A DNA stretch of 64,000 bases. It comes from Parcubacteria group bacterium Gr01-1014_8. Its GTDB lineage: Bacteria > Patescibacteriota > Minisyncoccia > Phycocordibacterales > UBA2100. Shown here in pieces: positions 4,182 to 15,522 of the stretch (the first letter of the stretch is position 1; the number at the start of each line of letters is the position of its first letter). A program made the translations under genes and the position numbers. The stretch spans positions 128,001-192,000 of the forward strand of contig VMGC01000002.1 in the NCBI GenBank assembly GCA_007376385.1, given 5' to 3'. Under the pieces are notes generated by a model. It did not search any database and was not told the origin of the DNA. It saw only the letters and a list, made by a program, of their open reading frames with translations.

Positions 4182-4406
4182 TCGAATGTGGTATGCATTT
4201 GCGGAATCTCTTAAAATGTGTCGGCCTTGTTCTTTTGACTGCCGATCTCAACGAGCTAAGAGAGGTGTGCGCTGCAGTGTCTCGCAGGCTGACGAGCAAA
4301 GAGGCAGCGCTGCCGCAGTAGCGGCGGACAGCGACGGCAGCGCGCACCTGTCTAGCGAGTACCTTTTTTTGACAGGTGCGCGCTCGCGTGGTAGCGTCGA
4401 ACTTCC

Positions 4407-6866
4407 ATGTCTAGCGTACGCGTGCTGAAATTCGGCGGTACTTCTGTTGGTTCGCCGGACGCGATACGGCACATCGTAAAAATAGTTCAACAACGCGGGA
4501 AAACCCGCATTGCCGCTATCGTTGTTTCTGCTTTTTCCGGCGTTACTGACGAACTCATCGCGATAGGCAAACTCGCGGCGAAAAAGGACCAGTCATATAA
4601 AGGGTTTCTCGCTGCGCTAGAAGCACGGCACATCGACGCTGTGAAGGAGCTCATCAGCCGAAAGAATCAGGATGCCTCCATTGCGCAGGTTAAAGTTTTG
4701 TTTAGATTCCTCGAGGGTGCGGTGCAGGGCGTGTCCCTTATTCACGAGTTATCGTCCGGCGCGCTGGACTACATTATGTGTTACGGAGAGCGCCTGTCTG
4801 CGCACATCGTTGCGGACGTACTGAGAGATAAAGGCATTCGTACGGAGTATTTGAATGCACGTAACATCATATTCACCGATGAGAATTTCGGTTCTGCATC
4901 AGTCGATTTTCCAGAGACGAATAAAGCGATAAACGCGTACTTTAAGAAGCATCATTCCGTGCAAGTTGTCACCGGTTTTATTGCCTCTACGCCGGATGGA
5001 AAGACGACGACGCTCGGGCGGGGAGGAAGCGACTATACGGCATCTATTCTAGGGGCAGCGCTTGACGTAGATGTCATCGAGATATGGACTGATGTGAGCG
5101 GTGTGATGACTGCAGATCCGCGTACAGTAAAAGAAGCGTTTCCCATCAAGGAAATGAGCTATACGGAAGCGATCGAGGTATCGTATTTCGGGGCAAAGGT
5201 CATTCATCCGCCGACGATGCAGCCGGCCAGAGAGAAGAATATCCCGATACTCATAAAAAATACGTTCGAACCGGAAGCGCCCGGCACCATCATTAGTTCG
5301 AAGTCAGCGGATAATGGCGCGCTTGCGAAAAGTATTACATCGATCGGAAATGTCGCGCTCTTGAGAGTGCAGGGAAACGACATGCCGAAAATTCGGGGCG
5401 TGCTTTCGCGCTTATTCGGCGCCCTTTCAAAGCACGCGATAAATGTCATTGTCATCACGCAAGCATCTTCGCAGCATTCCATCACGATTGCCGTCCTCGG
5501 CGCGGATGCGGATACCGCGCGAAAGGCGATAGACGAAGAGTTCGAACTCGAACGGCGGACCCACCGGATGGATAGGACGATAGTGGAAACGAAATTGGCA
5601 GTCATTGCACTCGTTGGCGAAGGTATGCGCAACAAGCCCGGAGTCGCGGGCAGGCTTTTCCAGACATTGGGACGCAACGGCATCAACATCGTCGCTCTCG
5701 CGCAAGGTTCTTCAGAATTGAATATTTCGTTCATTGTGCGCGAGAGCGACACGACGAAAGCCCTGAATGCTATCCACACGTCGTTCTTCTATCCGCGCCG
5801 GCGGGATATCAACGTCTTTCTAACAGGCACCGGTCTTATTGGAGGCATGCTCTTGCAACAACTTCTGAAACAGCAGGAATTTCTTGAACGTGAGCGCGGC
5901 GTTCGAATTCGCGTCGCCGGCATCGGAAACCAGCGCACGATGGATCTGGTACAGGACGGCATCTCGCTTTCAACGTGGAAAAAGGACCTCGTGTCTTCAA
6001 AGAAGCGCATGAATATTCGCGCGTTCATACACGAGATGAAGAAGATGGAGCTCCCGAACAAGGTGTTCGTGGATTGCACCGCGAGCGACGATATTGCAGC
6101 CGCATATGGAGACATATTAGCTTCCGGCATATGGGTAGTGACGCCGAACAAAAAAGCGAATTCGGGCACCTATAAGTATTATGAGGAATTACAGCAGTAC
6201 GCGGCATTTCCCGGCGTACAGTTCTTTTACGAGACGAATGTCGGCGCCGGATTGCCTATCGTCAACACGTTGAACGATCTCAGAGACAGCGGCGACAAAC
6301 TTCTTAAAGTGGAAGCCGTATTATCGGGGACACTGAGCTATATCTTCAATAATTTCGTAGAAGGAACGCGGTTCAGCGACATCGTGCGGCAGGCGAAGGA
6401 AAAAGGCTTCACGGAACCGGACCCACGGAACGACCTCTCCGGCGAAGATGTGGCGCGAAAGATACTCATTCTCGCGAGAGAAGCAGGATACAAGTTGGAA
6501 CTGAAAGATGTAGCCTTGAAGGGGCTTCTCGGAAAAAGATTCAGATCTGCCGATACTCCTAAAAAATTCTTTGCGCTTTTGGAAAAAGAAAATACCGCAT
6601 TCGAGAAAATTCGGGCGCATGCGGCAAAAAAAGGCCTTAGACTCCGATATATTGCACGCCTTGAAAAAGGACGTGCGAGCGTATCGCTCGAGGCAGTCCC
6701 GAGCACACATCCGTTCTATGAACTCGCAGAAAGTGATAACATTGTTTCATTCACGACAGAGCGATATAAACGCACCCCGCTCGTTGTGAAAGGTCCCGGC
6801 GCTGGTGCGGAAGTTACGGCGGGAGGCGTCCTCGCGGATATTTTACGGATAGGGATGACGATTTAA
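4407..6866 (+). CDS. thrA: Bifunctional aspartokinase / homoserine dehydrogenase
   Basis: N-terminal LKFGGTSVGS kinase motif, tandem ACT region, and a C-terminal NAD-binding homoserine dehydrogenase domain (FLTGTGLIGG). 819 aa. Confidence 0.85.
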   Translation: MSSVRVLKFGGTSVGSPDAIRHIVKIVQQRGKTRIAAIVVSAFSGVTDELIAIGKLAAKKDQSYKGFLAALEARHIDAVKELISRKNQDASIAQVKVLFRFLEGAVQGVSLIHELSSGALDYIMCYGERLSAHIVADVLRDKGIRTEYLNARNIIFTDENFGSASVDFPETNKAINAYFKKHHSVQVVTGFIASTPDGKTTTLGRGGSDYTASILGAALDVDVIEIWTDVSGVMTADPRTVKEAFPIKEMSYTEAIEVSYFGAKVIHPPTMQPAREKNIPILIKNTFEPEAPGTIISSKSADNGALAKSITSIGNVALLRVQGNDMPKIRGVLSRLFGALSKHAINVIVITQASSQHSITIAVLGADADTARKAIDEEFELERRTHRMDRTIVETKLAVIALVGEGMRNKPGVAGRLFQTLGRNGINIVALAQGSSELNISFIVRESDTTKALNAIHTSFFYPRRRDINVFLTGTGLIGGMLLQQLLKQQEFLERERGVRIRVAGIGNQRTMDLVQDGISLSTWKKDLVSSKKRMNIRAFIHEMKKMELPNKVFVDCTASDDIAAAYGDILASGIWVVTPNKKANSGTYKYYEELQQYAAFPGVQFFYETNVGAGLPIVNTLNDLRDSGDKLLKVEAVLSGTLSYIFNNFVEGTRFSDIVRQAKEKGFTEPDPRNDLSGEDVARKILILAREAGYKLELKDVALKGLLGKRFRSADTPKKFFALLEKENTAFEKIRAHAAKKGLRLRYIARLEKGRASVSLEAVPSTHPFYELAESDNIVSFTTERYKRTPLVVKGPGAGAEVTAGGVLADILRIGMTI

Positions 6867-9460: not shown

Positions 9461-10450
9461 ATGCAAAAAGAGATAGGAATGATCGGACTTGGAAAAATGG
9501 GAGGGAACATGGCGCGACAGCTCGTGGAAAAAGGATGGAATGTGCACGGTATGGATGCGGACCCTGCGACAACACAAAAACTCGGAAAGGAGGGTATACA
9601 AGGAGCGTACTCGATACACGAACTTGTCTCGAAACTGAAAGCCCCGCGTGTGGTATGGCTCATGGTACCCGCAGGGAAACCGGAAGACGATCTGCTGTTT
9701 GGCAATGACCGACATCATGACCGACATCGTAAGTCGAACACATTGACCGACTTACGATATCGGTCACGGTCATCCGTAAAAGATGCGGGGCTTGTACGTT
9801 TACTTTCACGGGGCGACGTTATCATTGATGGGGGTAATTCTTATTACAAAGATTCAATATCGCGCGCGAAGAAAGTCGCAACATTCGGCATCAAATTCAT
9901 TGACGTTGGATTTTCTGGCGGCCCCGCGGGGGCTCGAAACGGAGGCTGTCTCATGATCGGCGGGGATGAAAGCTCGTTCAAGCGGCTCGAACCGTTGTTC
10001 AAAGACCTTGCGCGCGACAATGGGTATCAATTCTTCAAAGGTGTTGGAGCGGGCCATTTTGTAAAGATGGTCCACAACGGCATCGAATACGGCATGATGC
10101 AGGCGTTGGGGGAAGGTTTTGCGATGTTAAAAAAGACACCGTTCAAACTGGATCTCACGCGTGTTGCGGATATATACAATAATGGAAGCGTTATCGAGTC
10201 GCGCTTGGTAGGATGGATGAAGAAAGCGTTTCAAGAACATGGAGAAGACTTGAAGCAGGTCTCAGGTTCGGTTGGGCACACTGGCGAGGGCGAATGGACG
10301 GCAAAGACTGCGCGAGAAATGAAAATTCCGGCAAAAATAATTGGGGAATCGTACAAGTTTCGCGTTCAGTCAAAGAAAAAGCCGTCGTTTACCGGCAAAG
10401 TCGTGTCCGCATTGCGTGGACAGTTCGGAGGACATAATATTAAAGAGTAA
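9461..10450 (+). CDS. gnd: 6-phosphogluconate dehydrogenase (short YqeC/Gnd-like form) carrying an 81-nt in-frame insertion
   Basis: GMIGLGKMGGNMA, DGGNSYYKD and GAGHFVKMVHNGIEYG motifs. 27 extra residues (LLFGNDRHHDRHRKSNTLTDLRYRSRS) lie between KPEDD and SVKDAG, relative to homologs. Confidence 0.75.
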   Translation: MQKEIGMIGLGKMGGNMARQLVEKGWNVHGMDADPATTQKLGKEGIQGAYSIHELVSKLKAPRVVWLMVPAGKPEDDLLFGNDRHHDRHRKSNTLTDLRYRSRSSVKDAGLVRLLSRGDVIIDGGNSYYKDSISRAKKVATFGIKFIDVGFSGGPAGARNGGCLMIGGDESSFKRLEPLFKDLARDNGYQFFKGVGAGHFVKMVHNGIEYGMMQALGEGFAMLKKTPFKLDLTRVADIYNNGSVIESRLVGWMKKAFQEHGEDLKQVSGSVGHTGEGEWTAKTAREMKIPAKIIGESYKFRVQSKKKPSFTGKVVSALRGQFGGHNIKE

Positions 10451-11449: not shown

Positions 11450-12445
11450 ATGTCTTTACAATCAATCGCAAAGCAGATGGTCGCAAAGGGAAAGGGCATC
11501 CTCGCAGCGGACGAAAGTTCGGGAACGATAGAGAGGAAGTTTGCGAAAGTCGGACTGACTTCGACAGAAGATAATCGGCGGGCGTATCGCGGAATGCTTT
11601 TTACCTCGCCAGGTATTGGAAACTATATTTCGGGAGCCATCCTTTTTGATGAAACGATAAAGCAAAAGGCGCCCGACGGCCGCACAATGGTCTCCATTCT
11701 GGAAGCGGAAGGAATCCTGCCGGGCATAAAAGTCGACCAAGGTACGAAGGATATGGAGGGTTCGCCGGGCGAGAAGATCACCAAAGGGCTCGACGGACTT
11801 GGCGAACGTCTAAAAGAATATGCAACGTTGGGAGCAAAATTTGCGAAGTGGAGATCGGTCATTACGATAGGAAACGGTATCCCGACCGATGCAAACATCA
11901 AACAGCAAACAAAAGATTTGGCTGCGTACGCGCTGGAGTGCCAGAAAGCCGGCATTGTTCCGATGGTTGAGCCGGAAGTACTCATGGATGGCGGCCACAC
12001 GATTGAAAGATGTGTTGAGGCAAGTGAAAAGACGCTCACTGCACTTTTTGAAGAGCTGAAGGCAGCAGGGGTAGATATATCGGGGACTATTCTCAAGACG
12101 AACATGATGGTTCCCGGCAAGGAGAGCGGTACGAGGGCAACACCAGAACAAGTGGCGGATGCGACTGTCGCCGTATTCAAGAAAGTTCTTCCAAATGATC
12201 TGCCAGGTCAGGCATTCCTATCTGGCGGGCAGGAAGATGTGGAAGCGACAGAGAATTTGAATGCCATCAACAAAAAGGGACCTTTCCCCTGGAATCTTTC
12301 ATTCTCATATGGCCGCGCACTTCAAGATTCGGCGCTCAAGGCATGGAACGGAAAATCAGAAAATATCATCGCTGCGCAACAGGTGTTTCTCAAGCGGGCA
12401 AAAATGAATTCACTTGCGACGGAAGGCAAATATAAAGGAGAGTAG
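11450..12445 (+). CDS. fba: Fructose-bisphosphate aldolase, class I (eukaryote-like type)
   Basis: GKGILAADESSGTIERKF, the hallmark of class I (Schiff-base) aldolases. 331 aa. Confidence 0.75.
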   Translation: MSLQSIAKQMVAKGKGILAADESSGTIERKFAKVGLTSTEDNRRAYRGMLFTSPGIGNYISGAILFDETIKQKAPDGRTMVSILEAEGILPGIKVDQGTKDMEGSPGEKITKGLDGLGERLKEYATLGAKFAKWRSVITIGNGIPTDANIKQQTKDLAAYALECQKAGIVPMVEPEVLMDGGHTIERCVEASEKTLTALFEELKAAGVDISGTILKTNMMVPGKESGTRATPEQVADATVAVFKKVLPNDLPGQAFLSGGQEDVEATENLNAINKKGPFPWNLSFSYGRALQDSALKAWNGKSENIIAAQQVFLKRAKMNSLATEGKYKGE

Positions 12446-12483
12446 TCGCATTTGAAACCTAATTTTTCAGCAATATCGCATGA

Positions 12484-12527
12484 TACCTTAGGTGTGCCGA
12501 CCGGCACACCTAAGGTATTCAGGTTTT
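12484..12527. terminator. Bidirectional intrinsic terminator between convergent fba and HAD genes
   Basis: Perfect 36-nt palindrome ATACCTTAGGTGTGCCGA|CCGGCACACCTAAGGTAT, followed by a T-run. Confidence 0.7.
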
Positions 12528-12534
12528 TGGCGGA

Positions 12535-13182
12535 CTACAATAAAGAATGCCCGTGAAGGACGATAGGAAGAATATCTTCGATTGTGTACACGATGTGGTC
12601 CGGTTCGTACGCGACGAGATCAGCGTGGGGTCCGTATGAAATACCAATAGTCCCGACACCGGCGGCTTTTCCCGCTTGGATGTCGACTGGCGTATCGCCG
12701 ACAAACCACGCGTCTTTCGCCTCTACATCTACCGCTCGGAGGGCTGCAGACACGTGTTCCGGGTCTGGCTTGGCTCGAGTGACATCATCTTGAGACAGCA
12801 AGGCATCAAACATGCTCACTATTTTTACGTGTTGCATGGTGGCGATGGACGATTTTCTCATACGATTTGTCACTGTTGCCAGCTTGATGCCCTTGTCTTT
12901 AAGCGTCTGCAGCGTTTCTTTTACGTTTGGAAATATCATTACTAACTGAAGATTTTTTTCTTGAAAATCGCGATGCGCTTGCATAAGCCGCAGGGCATCT
13001 TTTTCCGGGAACAGCATTTCATAGTTCTCTCTCAGCGTTTTACCCTGGCTTGCGAGAAGCACTGCAGTTGCCCGTGAAATAGGCGCTCCTTCTTCAGTGG
13101 TAACATGCTCGTAAGCACGAATAATGTACTCGTACGTATCAAGCAGAGTCCCATCGACATCAAAAAGTACTGCTTTTGTCAC
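12535..13182 (-). CDS. HAD-IA family hydrolase (phosphatase / beta-phosphoglucomutase-like)
   Basis: Motif I LFDVDGTLLDT, then downstream motif II and a GDT..D motif. GTG start. Confidence 0.7.
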   Translation of the reverse strand: MTKAVLFDVDGTLLDTYEYIIRAYEHVTTEEGAPISRATAVLLASQGKTLRENYEMLFPEKDALRLMQAHRDFQEKNLQLVMIFPNVKETLQTLKDKGIKLATVTNRMRKSSIATMQHVKIVSMFDALLSQDDVTRAKPDPEHVSAALRAVDVEAKDAWFVGDTPVDIQAGKAAGVGTIGISYGPHADLVAYEPDHIVYTIEDILPIVLHGHSLL

Positions 13183-13296
13183 TGGAAGATTATACCTAAC
13201 TTCAGGAGAACTCGTATTTCTCTCACTTTGACAGGAGTCATATATCTCCGTATGATGTTTTTTTCGCCCCTATAATAAGGCACACTTCCTAGGCAC

Positions 13297-15522
13297 ATGA
13301 GGCATATATTCTTAATCGTGCTTGCTGTCGCTTTTGCTGTATCTCTTGCAGCTTCAGTTTTTACGTTGATGCAAGTGAACAAAGAGACAGATGAGTTGTC
13401 GAAGAAGCTCAGGGAGAGGACGCTGCTTCTTGCGGATGGTCTTGCAGAGTCCGCGGCTCCTGCGTACGCGCGATATGCCACGAGTACGCTGGAAAAGTTG
13501 GCGAACACCTTTACGAATCGCGAGCGTCTCATCGGCCTTGCATTTTATGACACGCGCGGTAATAAAATTGCCGGTTCGAGCGGCGTCACAGATGAAATGC
13601 TGAAAAATGCGCCGATTCTCGATACATTCAATAGCACCGAGCCTGACGACGCTTTTGCAATTACCGAAGGGACGAGAAAATATTATTTCGCGCAACCACT
13701 CCACTCTGACGATGCCTATATTGGCTCGCTTGTACTTGTGCAGGATGCCAGTGATATCGATGTGGCAATGAGCAGGATATGGCGAGACACATTTCTGAAA
13801 CTTTTCGTATATTTTCTCCTTTTTGCCGTCGCCATCGCAGCCCTTGTCTACTTTGTGCTTTTCAAACCGCTATCGAATTTAGCTGAATCTATCCGCCAGG
13901 CGCGAATGAATAAAGATGCGCGTGCTCCTCAACCCTCGCACCACAATTTTTTTCTGCAACCTCTTGCGATGGAAGTCTCGAAACTTGCGTCTTCACTCGC
14001 GCAGGCACGAACTGCTGCAAGCGAAGAGGCGCGTATGCGCCTTGAAAAGATTGACACCCCTTGGACGGAGGAGAGGCTAAAGGAATTCATAAAGGCGTAT
14101 CTCAAGGATAGGCCTATCTATGTCGTTTCGAATCGAGAGCCCTACATACACTCCAAGGATCGCGGAGAGGTCACCTACTCGGTGCCTGCGAGCGGCATGG
14201 TGACAGCGCTTGAGTCTGTCATGGCGGCCTGCGGAGGGGAATGGCTCGCTCATGGCAGCGGAAATGCTGACAAAGAAATGGTCGATGCGGAGAGCAAGAT
14301 CCGTGTCCCACCAGATGAGCCGAAATATACCTTGAAGCGTATTTGGCTGAATCCAAAAGAGGTCAAGGGCTATTATGTCGGTTTCTCGAACGAGGCTCTG
14401 TGGCCGCTGTGTCATATAGCGCATACGAGGCCGACCTTCAGAAAGGAAGACTGGCTGATGTACAAGCGCGTGAACGGCAAGTTTGCTGAGGCGCTTCTTG
14501 CGGAATTAAAAGGCGTCGAGCGCCCCATAGTGTTGATACAAGATTTTCATCTTTCTCTTTTGCCGCGGATGATAAAGGAGTCGCGTCCGGACGCACAGGT
14601 CGGTCTTTTTTGGCACATACCCTGGCCGTCCGCAGAAGGCTTCAGTATCTGTCCTTGGAGAAAAGAGATACTGCAGGGAATGCTCGGCGCGGATATAATC
14701 GGTTTTCATACGCAGCAGTTCTGCAATAATTTCCTCGAAACTGTCGGAAAAGAGATCGAATCGCTTATCGATCTGGAGCAATTTGCTGTTACGAGCGATG
14801 AGCACACATCATTCATCAAGCCATTTCCTATAAGTATTTCGTTCACTGACGCAATGGAGGGAAAGACGTCGATAGCGCCTGATCGCGCTGCTCTTGAAGC
14901 GATGGACATTCGAACAGAGTTCGTCGGACTTGGCGTGGACAGGCTCGACTATACGAAGGGAATTCTTGAGCGATTCAGAGGGATCGAATTTTTTCTTGAC
15001 GCTCATCCGGATTTTTATAAACGATTTACGTTCTTGCAGGTCGCACCTCCGAGCCGCGAGGAATCGGAAAAGTATCGGGATTATGCAGTTGCCGTCGAGG
15101 CAGAAGCAGCCCGAGTGAATGCAAAATTCAGAAAGAATGGATGGCAGCCCATTCGTTTTGAAAAAAGGCATTTTTCGCACTCGGAACTTGTGCCGCTCTA
15201 CCAAACAGCGAACTTTTGTCTTGTGACATCTCTGCACGACGGCATGAACTTGGTCGCCAAAGAATACGTGGCAGCAAGAGATGATGAAGCAGGAGCCCTC
15301 ATCTTGAGCAAATTCACCGGCGCTTCTCGCGATTTCAATCGCGGTGCGCTTATCGTCAATCCCTATAGCGCCGAAGAGGTCTCGGAAGCTATCCACCGTG
15401 CTCTCGTCATGCCCGCCACTGAGCAGCATCGTAGAATGAGATCCATGCGAACATCAATACGAGACTACAATGTGTATCGCTGGGCGGCTGAATTTATAAA
15501 AGCAGTTGCAGCGCTCCGATAA
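13297..15522 (+). CDS. otsA: Membrane sensor-like domain fused to trehalose-6-phosphate synthase (GT20, OtsA)
   Basis: C-terminal ~480 aa is a typical OtsA (YVVSNREPY..., GGLVTAL-like and HIPWP motifs). N-terminal ~250 aa has TM1, a ~140-aa extracytoplasmic segment, TM2 and a coiled linker. Confidence 0.8.
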   Translation: MRHIFLIVLAVAFAVSLAASVFTLMQVNKETDELSKKLRERTLLLADGLAESAAPAYARYATSTLEKLANTFTNRERLIGLAFYDTRGNKIAGSSGVTDEMLKNAPILDTFNSTEPDDAFAITEGTRKYYFAQPLHSDDAYIGSLVLVQDASDIDVAMSRIWRDTFLKLFVYFLLFAVAIAALVYFVLFKPLSNLAESIRQARMNKDARAPQPSHHNFFLQPLAMEVSKLASSLAQARTAASEEARMRLEKIDTPWTEERLKEFIKAYLKDRPIYVVSNREPYIHSKDRGEVTYSVPASGMVTALESVMAACGGEWLAHGSGNADKEMVDAESKIRVPPDEPKYTLKRIWLNPKEVKGYYVGFSNEALWPLCHIAHTRPTFRKEDWLMYKRVNGKFAEALLAELKGVERPIVLIQDFHLSLLPRMIKESRPDAQVGLFWHIPWPSAEGFSICPWRKEILQGMLGADIIGFHTQQFCNNFLETVGKEIESLIDLEQFAVTSDEHTSFIKPFPISISFTDAMEGKTSIAPDRAALEAMDIRTEFVGLGVDRLDYTKGILERFRGIEFFLDAHPDFYKRFTFLQVAPPSREESEKYRDYAVAVEAEAARVNAKFRKNGWQPIRFEKRHFSHSELVPLYQTANFCLVTSLHDGMNLVAKEYVAARDDEAGALILSKFTGASRDFNRGALIVNPYSAEEVSEAIHRALVMPATEQHRRMRSMRTSIRDYNVYRWAAEFIKAVAALR

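Follow-up and report, generated by a model that had tools for sequence, protein, structure and literature searches.

A probable REPIN-like doublet in a 6-phosphogluconate dehydrogenase gene of a Parcubacteria group bacterium and a RAYT-like Y1 transposase gene in the same genome

The DNA analysed here is a 64-kb stretch (the window) of Parcubacteria group bacterium Gr01-1014_8, in which the gene for 6-phosphogluconate dehydrogenase (6PGDH) carries an in-frame palindromic insert. This insert is very probably a doublet like those termed REPIN (REP doublets forming hairpins), belonging to a repeat family of the REP (repetitive extragenic palindrome) type, and would be read through as a disordered loop; a Y1 transposase gene resembling those of REP-associated tyrosine transposases (RAYT) is present in the same genome. 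The palindrome and its statistics, the identity of its core to copies elsewhere and the link of the repeat unit to a transposase gene in three genomes were all observed directly, as were in-frame copies in other housekeeping genes and the presence or absence of an insert at the 6PGDH site among equally close relatives.

The repeat unit, its copies and the linked transposase genes

The arms of the palindrome (TGACCGACATCGTAAGTCG at 9718-9736 and CGACTTACGATATCGGTCA at 9748-9766) are 19 nt each and 11 nt apart, with 18 of 19 base pairs complementary (95%), as an initial annotation of the window had described. Folding of positions 9685-9780 as single-stranded DNA gave -26.5 kcal/mol (z = -6.8), a stability reached by none of 200 shuffled sequences, and the RNA fold of the insert stretch gave -37.4 kcal/mol. 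The short direct repeat described in the same annotation was recovered as a tandem 12-nt repeat, ATGACCGACATC, at 9705-9716 and 9717-9728. An insertion of 81 nt, or 27 codons, had been placed at 9691-9771; alignment with 19 non-carrier homologues upheld an in-frame surplus but reduced it to 26 codons, gap placement being arbitrary by a few residues, and shifted its boundaries (Table 1). The residues LLFG, which had been counted as insert, belong to a native, conserved LLFG(N/K)(D/N), and the codon frame begins at 9692, not 9691. In the solved short-form 6PGDH 4e21, chain residues 94-101 (8 residues) lie opposite query residues 74-111.

From the palindromic DNA of two other proteins with an insert at this site (P0005 and P0002, see below) the repeat unit was determined to be 23 nt, TGACCGAC-N7-GTCGGTCA. 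The unit consensus, (A)TGACCGAC-N7-GTCGGTCA(T), spans 23-25 nt with stems of 8-9 bp and a 7-nt centre, and its loop is conserved around TTCGTAA/TTACGAA. Units are usually bracketed by A...T, which is all that is conserved of their immediate flanks. This size is that of REP-type sequences, short imperfect palindromes of about 20-40 bp. In the window, the 23-nt cores of unit 1 (9718-9740) and of the inverted unit 2 (9744-9766) together form the 18/19-bp hairpin, and in the computed fold positions 9767-9773 pair with ATGACCG at 9705-9711. Hairpin-forming doublets, the arrangement of a REPIN, were found in the window and at loci L003/L006, and doublets also at L008 and L010. As to a target-site duplication, the flanks of the 6PGDH doublet are at most weakly alike (GGC AAT GAC vs GTA AAA GAT), and this was not taken as evidence.

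At locus L010 of the metagenome-assembled genome (MAG) CAYJVW01, a 223-aa open reading frame (ORF) is bracketed by the unit; one copy provides its stop codon and a doublet lies at its start. The ORF matched Pfam Y1_Tnp (PF01797) at 29.1 bits, above the 23-bit cut-off, and the HxH (NHYHLLL) and tyrosine (YIHLNP) motifs were present in the transposase alignment. A search with this protein gave 2,755 relatives at E <= 1e-5, the top matches being 60-81% identical and, by source name, all from Kaiserbacteria, Parcubacteria, Patescibacteria or an unclassified 'bacterium'. A relative with 77% identity (P0124) comes from the window's own organism, being named a transposase of Parcubacteria group bacterium Gr01-1014_8, and its locus (L014) is a different contig of the same MAG, from the same sequencing run. 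The P0124 gene stands in a fixed neighbourhood between housekeeping genes and is flanked by perfectly complementary inverted 25-nt units, ATGACCGACATCGTATGTCGGTCAT and ATGACCGACATACGATGTCGGTCAT, 659 nt apart. Further upstream lies a composite, TGACCGACATC-TAG-TGACCGACATCGTAAGTCGAACA (L014 9882-9918), which matches window positions 9706-9740 and has the same arrangement as the window insert, a partial unit followed by a GTCGAACA-variant unit. The 23-nt core of window unit 1 recurs without change at L014 9896-9918 and, in reverse complement, at L010 5347-5369. At L012, from an unrelated metagenome, a 46%-identical transposase homologue was again flanked by the unit, so that the unit flanks a transposase gene at L014, L010 and L012.

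Cognate variants of the unit were found at L016, L018 and L005. Transposase homologues in other genomes of the candidate phyla radiation (CPR; L016 and L018) and a paralogue at L005 have flanking hairpins with the same loop (TTCGTAA/TTACGAA or ATCGTAT) and different stems (GGGAGAT, ATGATTGATT, ATAACGAC and TATAAGGTTT), and the two transposase paralogues of MAG CAYJVW01, 58% identical, each have their own hairpin. Such covariation is expected of cognate pairs and suggests co-evolution of enzyme and hairpin. A REP-like hairpin also lies inside each RAYT-like transposase gene, in frame and at a conserved place, between EFND..PA and IVDIHGWCLMKNHYH; its stems match the flanking REP of the respective genome, while the loop TTCGTAA/TTACGAA is constant.

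The unit (TGACCGACTTACGANNTCGNTCA as query) was sought in 185,579 species-representative genomes. Six contigs matched, all from MAG CAYJVW01, with 9 exact matches and 12 with <=3 mismatches. Every sampled CAYJVW01 copy away from the transposase gene is intragenic, five housekeeping genes being occupied in frame (Table 1), and the copy in 6PGDH is identical to the other copies of that MAG. Metagenomes, when scanned, yielded further copies: one in frame within a NifS-like ORF (L011), three on L012, and others on the marine-sediment contig L013. The element is always read as (N/Y/H)DR[LH][TR][KM]SV, followed in doublets by (M/V)TDLR[SC]RS. The extragenic location of REPs is thus not observed here, as copies lie in frame within 6PGDH, PurD, PurH, PurL, LeuRS and the NifS-like ORF. 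This dispersal, together with the units around the Y1 transposase gene, agrees with the initial suggestion of a mobile palindrome that colonises ORFs in frame in the manner of Rickettsia palindromic elements (RPE).

Of the host genes, 6PGDH alone is shown to have gained its copy by insertion. For the NifS-like gene of L011 an insertion is indicated by the deletion of 30 nt (core + 7 nt), which restores a plausible junction of ..GPMN with RLPN..; in PurH of CAYJVW01, compared with the PDB, the element peptide falls in a length-variable region, where remote homologues cannot show a clean insertion. A 51-column tandem profile of the element peptide (DRHRKSVKMTDLRCRS and variants) gave no match at E <= 10 among 480 candidates, and, the peptide being too short to be sought among 5.8 billion sequences, a census of carrier proteins was not feasible by this route. 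No orthologues of the other host genes were present in the window or the fetched loci, and no copy of the unit was found in viral contigs.

Table 1. Coordinates of the 6PGDH gene, its insert and related hairpins
Feature	Locus	Position	Strand	Basis or remark
Short-form decarboxylating 6-phosphogluconate dehydrogenase (6PGDH), 329 aa	Window	9461..10450	+	ORF list, Pfam, protein name
Whole palindromic composite, 69 nt	Window	9705..9773	.	Partial unit + unit 1 + CAT spacer + inverted unit 2 + extra CGGTCA + T
Partial unit ATGACCGACATC, first copy of the 12-nt direct repeat	Window	9705..9716	+	+4 codons vs the other two carriers
Surplus codons R84-A109 (26 codons, RHHDRHRKSNTLTDLRYRSRSSVKDA)	Window	9710..9787	+	Protein alignment, codon alignment, PDB homologue 4e21
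REP unit 1, A-TGACCGAC-ATCGTAA-GTCGAACA-C	Window	9717..9741	+	Inner arm is the GTCGAACA variant; covariance model 37.8 bits, E = 3e-11
REP unit 2, in inverse orientation to unit 1; plus-strand sequence TGACCGAC-TTACGAT-ATCGGTCA	Window	9743..9767	-	Covariance model 38.1 bits, E = 2.3e-11
Second CGGTCA (copy of 9761-9766) and closing T	Window	9767..9773	+	+2 codons vs the other carriers
Hairpin inside transposase gene	L014	10143-10165
Hairpin inside transposase gene	L010	5145-5169
Hairpin inside transposase gene	L018	10148-10172
Hairpin inside transposase gene	L016	~10140-10175		Doublet
Cognate hairpins	L016	9931-9950 and 10654-10740
Cognate hairpin	L018	10659-10712
Cognate hairpin	L005	~5190-5262
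Copy in PurD	CAYJVW01			Singlet, in frame
Copy in 6PGDH	CAYJVW01			Doublet, in frame
Copy in PurH	CAYJVW01			Singlet, in frame
Copy in LeuRS	CAYJVW01			Doublet, in frame
Copy in PurL	CAYJVW01			Singlet, in frame

Occupancy of the 6PGDH site, reading frame and predicted structure

Among the 70 best-scoring full-length 6PGDH homologues inspected, only P0002 (GCA_030697485.1) and P0005 (Logan ERR4904392; MAG CAYJVW01 has the same gene) carried, besides the window protein, a homologous insert, which in both is of 20 aa and at exactly the same position. The P0005 DNA forms a perfect hairpin with 24-nt arms (ATGACCGACATCGTAAGTCGGTCA-AGA-TGACCGACTTACGATGTCGGTCAT), and a perfect doublet with 24-nt arms is recorded at L003/L006; the P0002 DNA consists of two self-palindromic units in direct order, the doublet at L002 being direct and not inverted. 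Indels among the three carriers (12 nt and 6 nt) are multiples of three, which keeps the frame. Two equally close non-carriers, P0003 and P0004, have no insert.

Amino-acid identity among the carriers, and between them and the nearest non-carrier, is 73-79%. In the same comparisons the fraction of identical four-fold degenerate sites was only 0.33-0.46, and 0.35-0.46 among the carrier genes, indicating that silent sites are saturated; despite this, the element units of the three carriers are ~93-100% identical. In a neighbour-joining tree of modest resolution the window protein grouped with the non-carriers P0003 and P0004, the carriers were monophyletic in 2% of 200 bootstrap replicates, and P0002 and P0005 fell together in 79%. 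By their neighbouring genes zwf, glpX and fba the four genomes were roughly equidistant, which is uninformative on species relationships. The pattern calls for one of two histories: an old insertion that some lineages have lost precisely, or insertion at this site more than once. Under either history, the element sequence may have been recently copied or converted from other copies within each genome, as is suggested by near-identical units against saturated silent sites and also by the genome-specific composite common to the 6PGDH insert and the RAYT-adjacent copy. The point of greatest interest is that copies in diverged lineages look fresh and yet occupy one and the same codon position.

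When the consensus was translated in all frames, the singlet had a TGA stop in one of three frames on either strand, and the doublet was open in only one frame, which is the frame observed; all observed intragenic copies use an open frame. Of the six reading frames of the window composite (9705-9773), only the one in use is without stops. The uniform element peptide is accounted for by the survival of frame-compatible insertions only. That the insert is translated, and that it is roughly neutral, or harmless, for the 6PGDH enzyme, is suggested by its unbroken frame, by indel lengths divisible by three and by its placement in a loop.

An AlphaFold model of the window 6PGDH, built on a 22-sequence alignment, had a mean predicted local distance difference test (pLDDT) score of 84.9 and a predicted template modelling (pTM) score of 0.82. 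Residues 84-106 scored below 50 and were modelled as coil with no secondary structure, while their flanks scored 89-97; the segment sits between helix 73-80 and helix 111-114, with strand 64-67 before and strand 120-123 after. The insert is thus predicted to be a disordered loop between confidently modelled elements, in line with the added loop proposed initially and with the surface or loop placement of RPEs. Other homologues have 4-8 extra residues at the same spot in the protein alignment, which indicates that this loop tolerates insertions.

Weighing the explanations

The most probable explanation is that the insert is a REPIN-like doublet, seated in an indel-tolerant loop of the 6PGDH Rossmann domain, whose unit belongs with the copies around an IS200-like HUH/Y1 (RAYT-like) transposase gene of this genome; it would be transcribed and translated as a disordered loop of ~23 residues. 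We infer that the transposase mobilises the unit; the Y1 enzyme may move the hairpin as single-stranded DNA, as has been proposed for REP/RAYT systems and shown for IS200/IS605. The doublet would persist because it is placed in its only stop-free reading frame.

Several observations weigh against this explanation. No transposition was observed, and the translation of the insert is read from frame conservation only. The search for other copies that the initial annotation had proposed was fruitful on another contig of the same genome (L014), but the rest of the 64-kb window held no further copy of the unit (covariance model, filters off; next-best E = 0.8) and no transposase homologue, so that copy number in Gr01-1014_8 is low, with three loci in ~84 kb sampled. 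The 223-aa transposase scored 35.4 bits against NCBIfam REP_Tyr_transpos, where the cut-off is 80, and does not qualify as a RAYT by that model; with the Y1_Tnp match above its cut-off, this indicates a Y1 transposase of a divergent, RAYT-like clade. The GTAG tag that RAYT-linked REPs typically carry is not conserved: in the flanks of ~20 units it adjoined the unit only at L012 184-206 and near L014 9879. Finally, the same site is occupied in diverged lineages, which simple random transposition does not explain.

A possible but more doubtful proposal is that in these CPR bacteria REPs at fixed, orthologous sites within genes escape decay; repeatedly overwritten or re-inserted, they would track the REP flanking the transposase gene of their genome through a site-retaining homing or conversion activity of the RAYT-like enzyme. 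Two sites are concerned, one in the loop of 6PGDH and the other, in frame and conserved, within the transposase gene. It is hinted at by the composite of partial unit and GTCGAACA variant which the window 6PGDH copy shares with the copy upstream of its own transposase gene, by the uniformity of the CAYJVW01 copies, 6PGDH included, by saturated silent sites in carriers that are so rarely monophyletic, and by the covariation of hairpins inside transposase genes with the flanking REPs. Should homing or conversion occur, then, combined with exact losses in sister lineages, it would mean that this REP-RAYT system is gene-resident and passed on vertically, and is not a random hopper.

It is improbable that the hairpin is primarily a functional cis element which, however it arose, is maintained through selection on the structure of the DNA or RNA, for example as an mRNA structure slowing translation or setting transcript stability in zwf-gnd-glpX-fba, or as a domesticated binding site of a Y1 protein. 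Nucleotide conservation far above that of silent sites, the strong RNA fold and the covarying hairpin at a conserved in-frame site within transposase genes would be consistent with such a role. However, no Rfam family matched the insert (the best were miRNA models at ~21 bits against cut-offs of 90-105), equally close relatives have no insert, the host genes of the other copies are unrelated, and recent copying or conversion from other copies explains the conservation equally well.

Two explanations that dispense with a mobile element are very unlikely. The segment could be an ancient, lineage-specific loop whose peptide is selected, with the palindrome incidental, for example through codons for D-R-L-T-K-S-V that mirror each other; three relatives do have it at the same position, and the site tolerates indels, as the extra residues of other homologues indicate. 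The same DNA is nevertheless present in five genes unrelated to one another and, in three genomes, beside a transposase gene, the equally close P0003 and P0004 are without the segment, and the peptide is predicted to be disordered. Nor do the relatives share the segment as non-palindromic DNA, a case which the initial annotation had raised: theirs is palindromic, perfectly so in one of them. The other, a local event de novo in which hairpin-primed template switching or slippage duplicated and inverted neighbouring 6PGDH sequence, was the annotation's alternative to a mobile element and found no support. The small secondary duplications (12 nt, and the 6-nt CGGTCA) and the L011 palindrome, which reaches 7 nt into its flank as if the flank had been copied inverted, would suit it, but the core is not derived from 6PGDH and is identical to copies found elsewhere, among them the 23-nt unit beside the transposase gene of the same genome. 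Slippage plausibly accounts for the secondary 12- and 6-nt duplications only.

There is even less to recommend an untranslated segment, cut out of the mRNA or skipped by the ribosome in the manner of the phage T4 gene 60 hop, which would leave the protein with no extra loop: the mRNA hairpin is very stable and short direct repeats lie at its flank, but the frame is open in all three carriers with length differences divisible by three, and each of the copies in five other genes lies in a stop-free frame, an outcome expected under selection on translated inserts and unnecessary under splicing or bypassing. Although library or assembly errors can yield palindromes, a hairpin or chimeric join made by the assembler, the last doubt voiced initially, is close to inconceivable, since run SRR8863434 as assembled independently by Logan (L001) shows no difference from the window over 6,990 bp, homologous inserts occur in two MAGs from other projects, and the frame is intact.

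Relation to known systems, host gene and minor observations

The closest known system to the REPIN-like doublet and its Y1 transposase is REP/REPIN-RAYT, with the intragenic REPs already described for it, rather than RPEs alone. In REP/REPIN-RAYT systems a short palindrome forms hairpin-forming doublets, and units flank a Y1 transposase gene (Bertels & Rainey 2011, PMC3116915). The likenesses are a short imperfect palindrome found singly and in inverted doublets, which fold into a long hairpin, inverted copies on both sides of a Y1 HUH transposase gene, a cognate hairpin for each transposase paralogue or orthologue, and a conserved, widespread transposase family. Unlike those systems, copies here that are not next to the transposase gene lie within genes and in frame, and number a handful per genome as opposed to tens to hundreds; in place of a conserved GTAG or CGTC tag there is a conserved loop (TTCGTAA/TTACGAA) with variable stems. 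The transposase, moreover, is below the NCBIfam RAYT cut-off, its gene has an in-frame internal copy, and the hosts are CPR/Patescibacteria.

Intragenic REPs with GTAG or CGTC tags were described by Di Nocera et al. (2013, PMC3733652) as singlets or dimers in genes for known proteins, the dimers encoding ~20-30 aa; tRNA synthetases are among the host genes, and the copies were read as neutral insertions in loops or linkers. Those families come from Proteobacteria, Opitutus, Rickettsia and others, and most of their copies are intergenic. The in-frame singlets and dimers within genes, and the tRNA synthetase host (here LeuRS), are alike in both cases, whereas the present unit has no tag and the sampled CAYJVW01 copies away from the transposase gene are all intragenic.

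RPEs are summarised in the same paper (PMC3733652). They too are palindromic repeats inserted within housekeeping ORFs without loss of frame; they are compatible with function and presumed to be placed on protein surfaces. They differ in unit length and host phylum, the comparison being one of descriptions and not of sequences. RPE-1 is much longer than the present unit, at about 100-150 bp, and we know of no dedicated transposase for RPEs. With IS200/IS605 and its hairpin-bearing miniature derivatives the system shares a Y1 HUH transposase (PF01797) with HxH and tyrosine motifs and hairpins at both ends of the gene; it is unlike them in that the flanking hairpins are one palindrome inverted and not distinct left and right ends, that short hairpins also stand alone at distant sites, and that the transposase gene has a fixed neighbourhood.

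Full-text literature searches returned no paper linking palindromic elements or RAYTs to CPR bacteria. The findings tie a puzzling in-frame hairpin of a core metabolic enzyme to a specific repeat family and to a candidate enzyme in the same genome, and indicate that elements of REP/RAYT type occur in CPR/Patescibacteria, whose genomes are small and gene-dense; most of the copies sampled there are within essential genes, probably as translated, disordered loops. Inserts of this kind should not be annotated as frameshifts, pseudogenes or misassemblies. Low copy number and a conserved loop with covarying stems offer tests of how RAYT-like enzymes recognise and copy hairpins; the internal copy in the transposase gene and same-site occupancy across diverged lineages are further features for their study.

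The host gene stands in the row zwf-gnd-glpX-fba, its neighbours by Pfam being glucose-6-phosphate dehydrogenase (G6PD), GlpX fructose bisphosphatase and a class-I aldolase. Its ORF matched NAD_binding_2 (1.7e-41, split into two stretches) and 6PGD (6.5e-21), and the exact 329-aa protein was found in the protein search as the named 6PGDH of Parcubacteria group bacterium Gr01-1014_8. NAD_binding_2, the 6PGD C-terminal domain and the conserved GGNS and GAGHFVKMVHNGIEYG motifs identify it as a short-form 6PGDH. In this and the other host genes, Pfam domains on both sides of the insert show the proteins to be recognisable despite the in-frame insertion.

A number of minor observations were made on these genes and loci. 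A second indel hot spot of CPR 6PGDH lies right after the VPA motif (alignment columns ~111-131; window residues ~70-73), where 4-21 extra residues are present in P0028, P0051, P0062, P0076, P0078 and P0081. The CPR homologues P0077, P0093, P0098 and P0112 (529-572 aa) have an extra G6PD_C domain and may be either fused zwf-gnd genes or run-together gene calls. In the LeuRS of CAYJVW01 (L008 2-2857, minus strand) an alpha/beta-hydrolase domain (Ser_hydrolase PF06821, 2.4e-07; residues 255-415) is inserted between the catalytic and editing parts, the REP doublet being separate, near residue 833. In metagenome Ga0066639 (L011 1304-1340; L012 909-949 and 2476-2512) the palindrome runs 7-9 nt past the conserved core with site-specific sequence, at L011 as though insertion had made an inverted copy of one flank; such extensions were not seen in most intragenic copies. 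Beside the transposase locus of L018, a gyrase A / topoisomerase IV subunit gene (12263-14810) appears split into several calls and has a faint intein-splicing match.

Elsewhere in the window, imperfect inverted repeats at 2037-2091 and 4334-4389 (26-nt arms, 81%; 19-nt arms, 89%) lie upstream of asd, and were placed within an aspartokinase/homoserine dehydrogenase gene by the L001 gene calls. A perfect hairpin at 12483-12518, with 17-nt arms (ATACCTTAGGTGTGCCG / CGGCACACCTAAGGTAT) and a 2-nt loop, lies ~40 nt past the aldolase gene; it is probably a terminator, and its sequence is unrelated to the REP unit.

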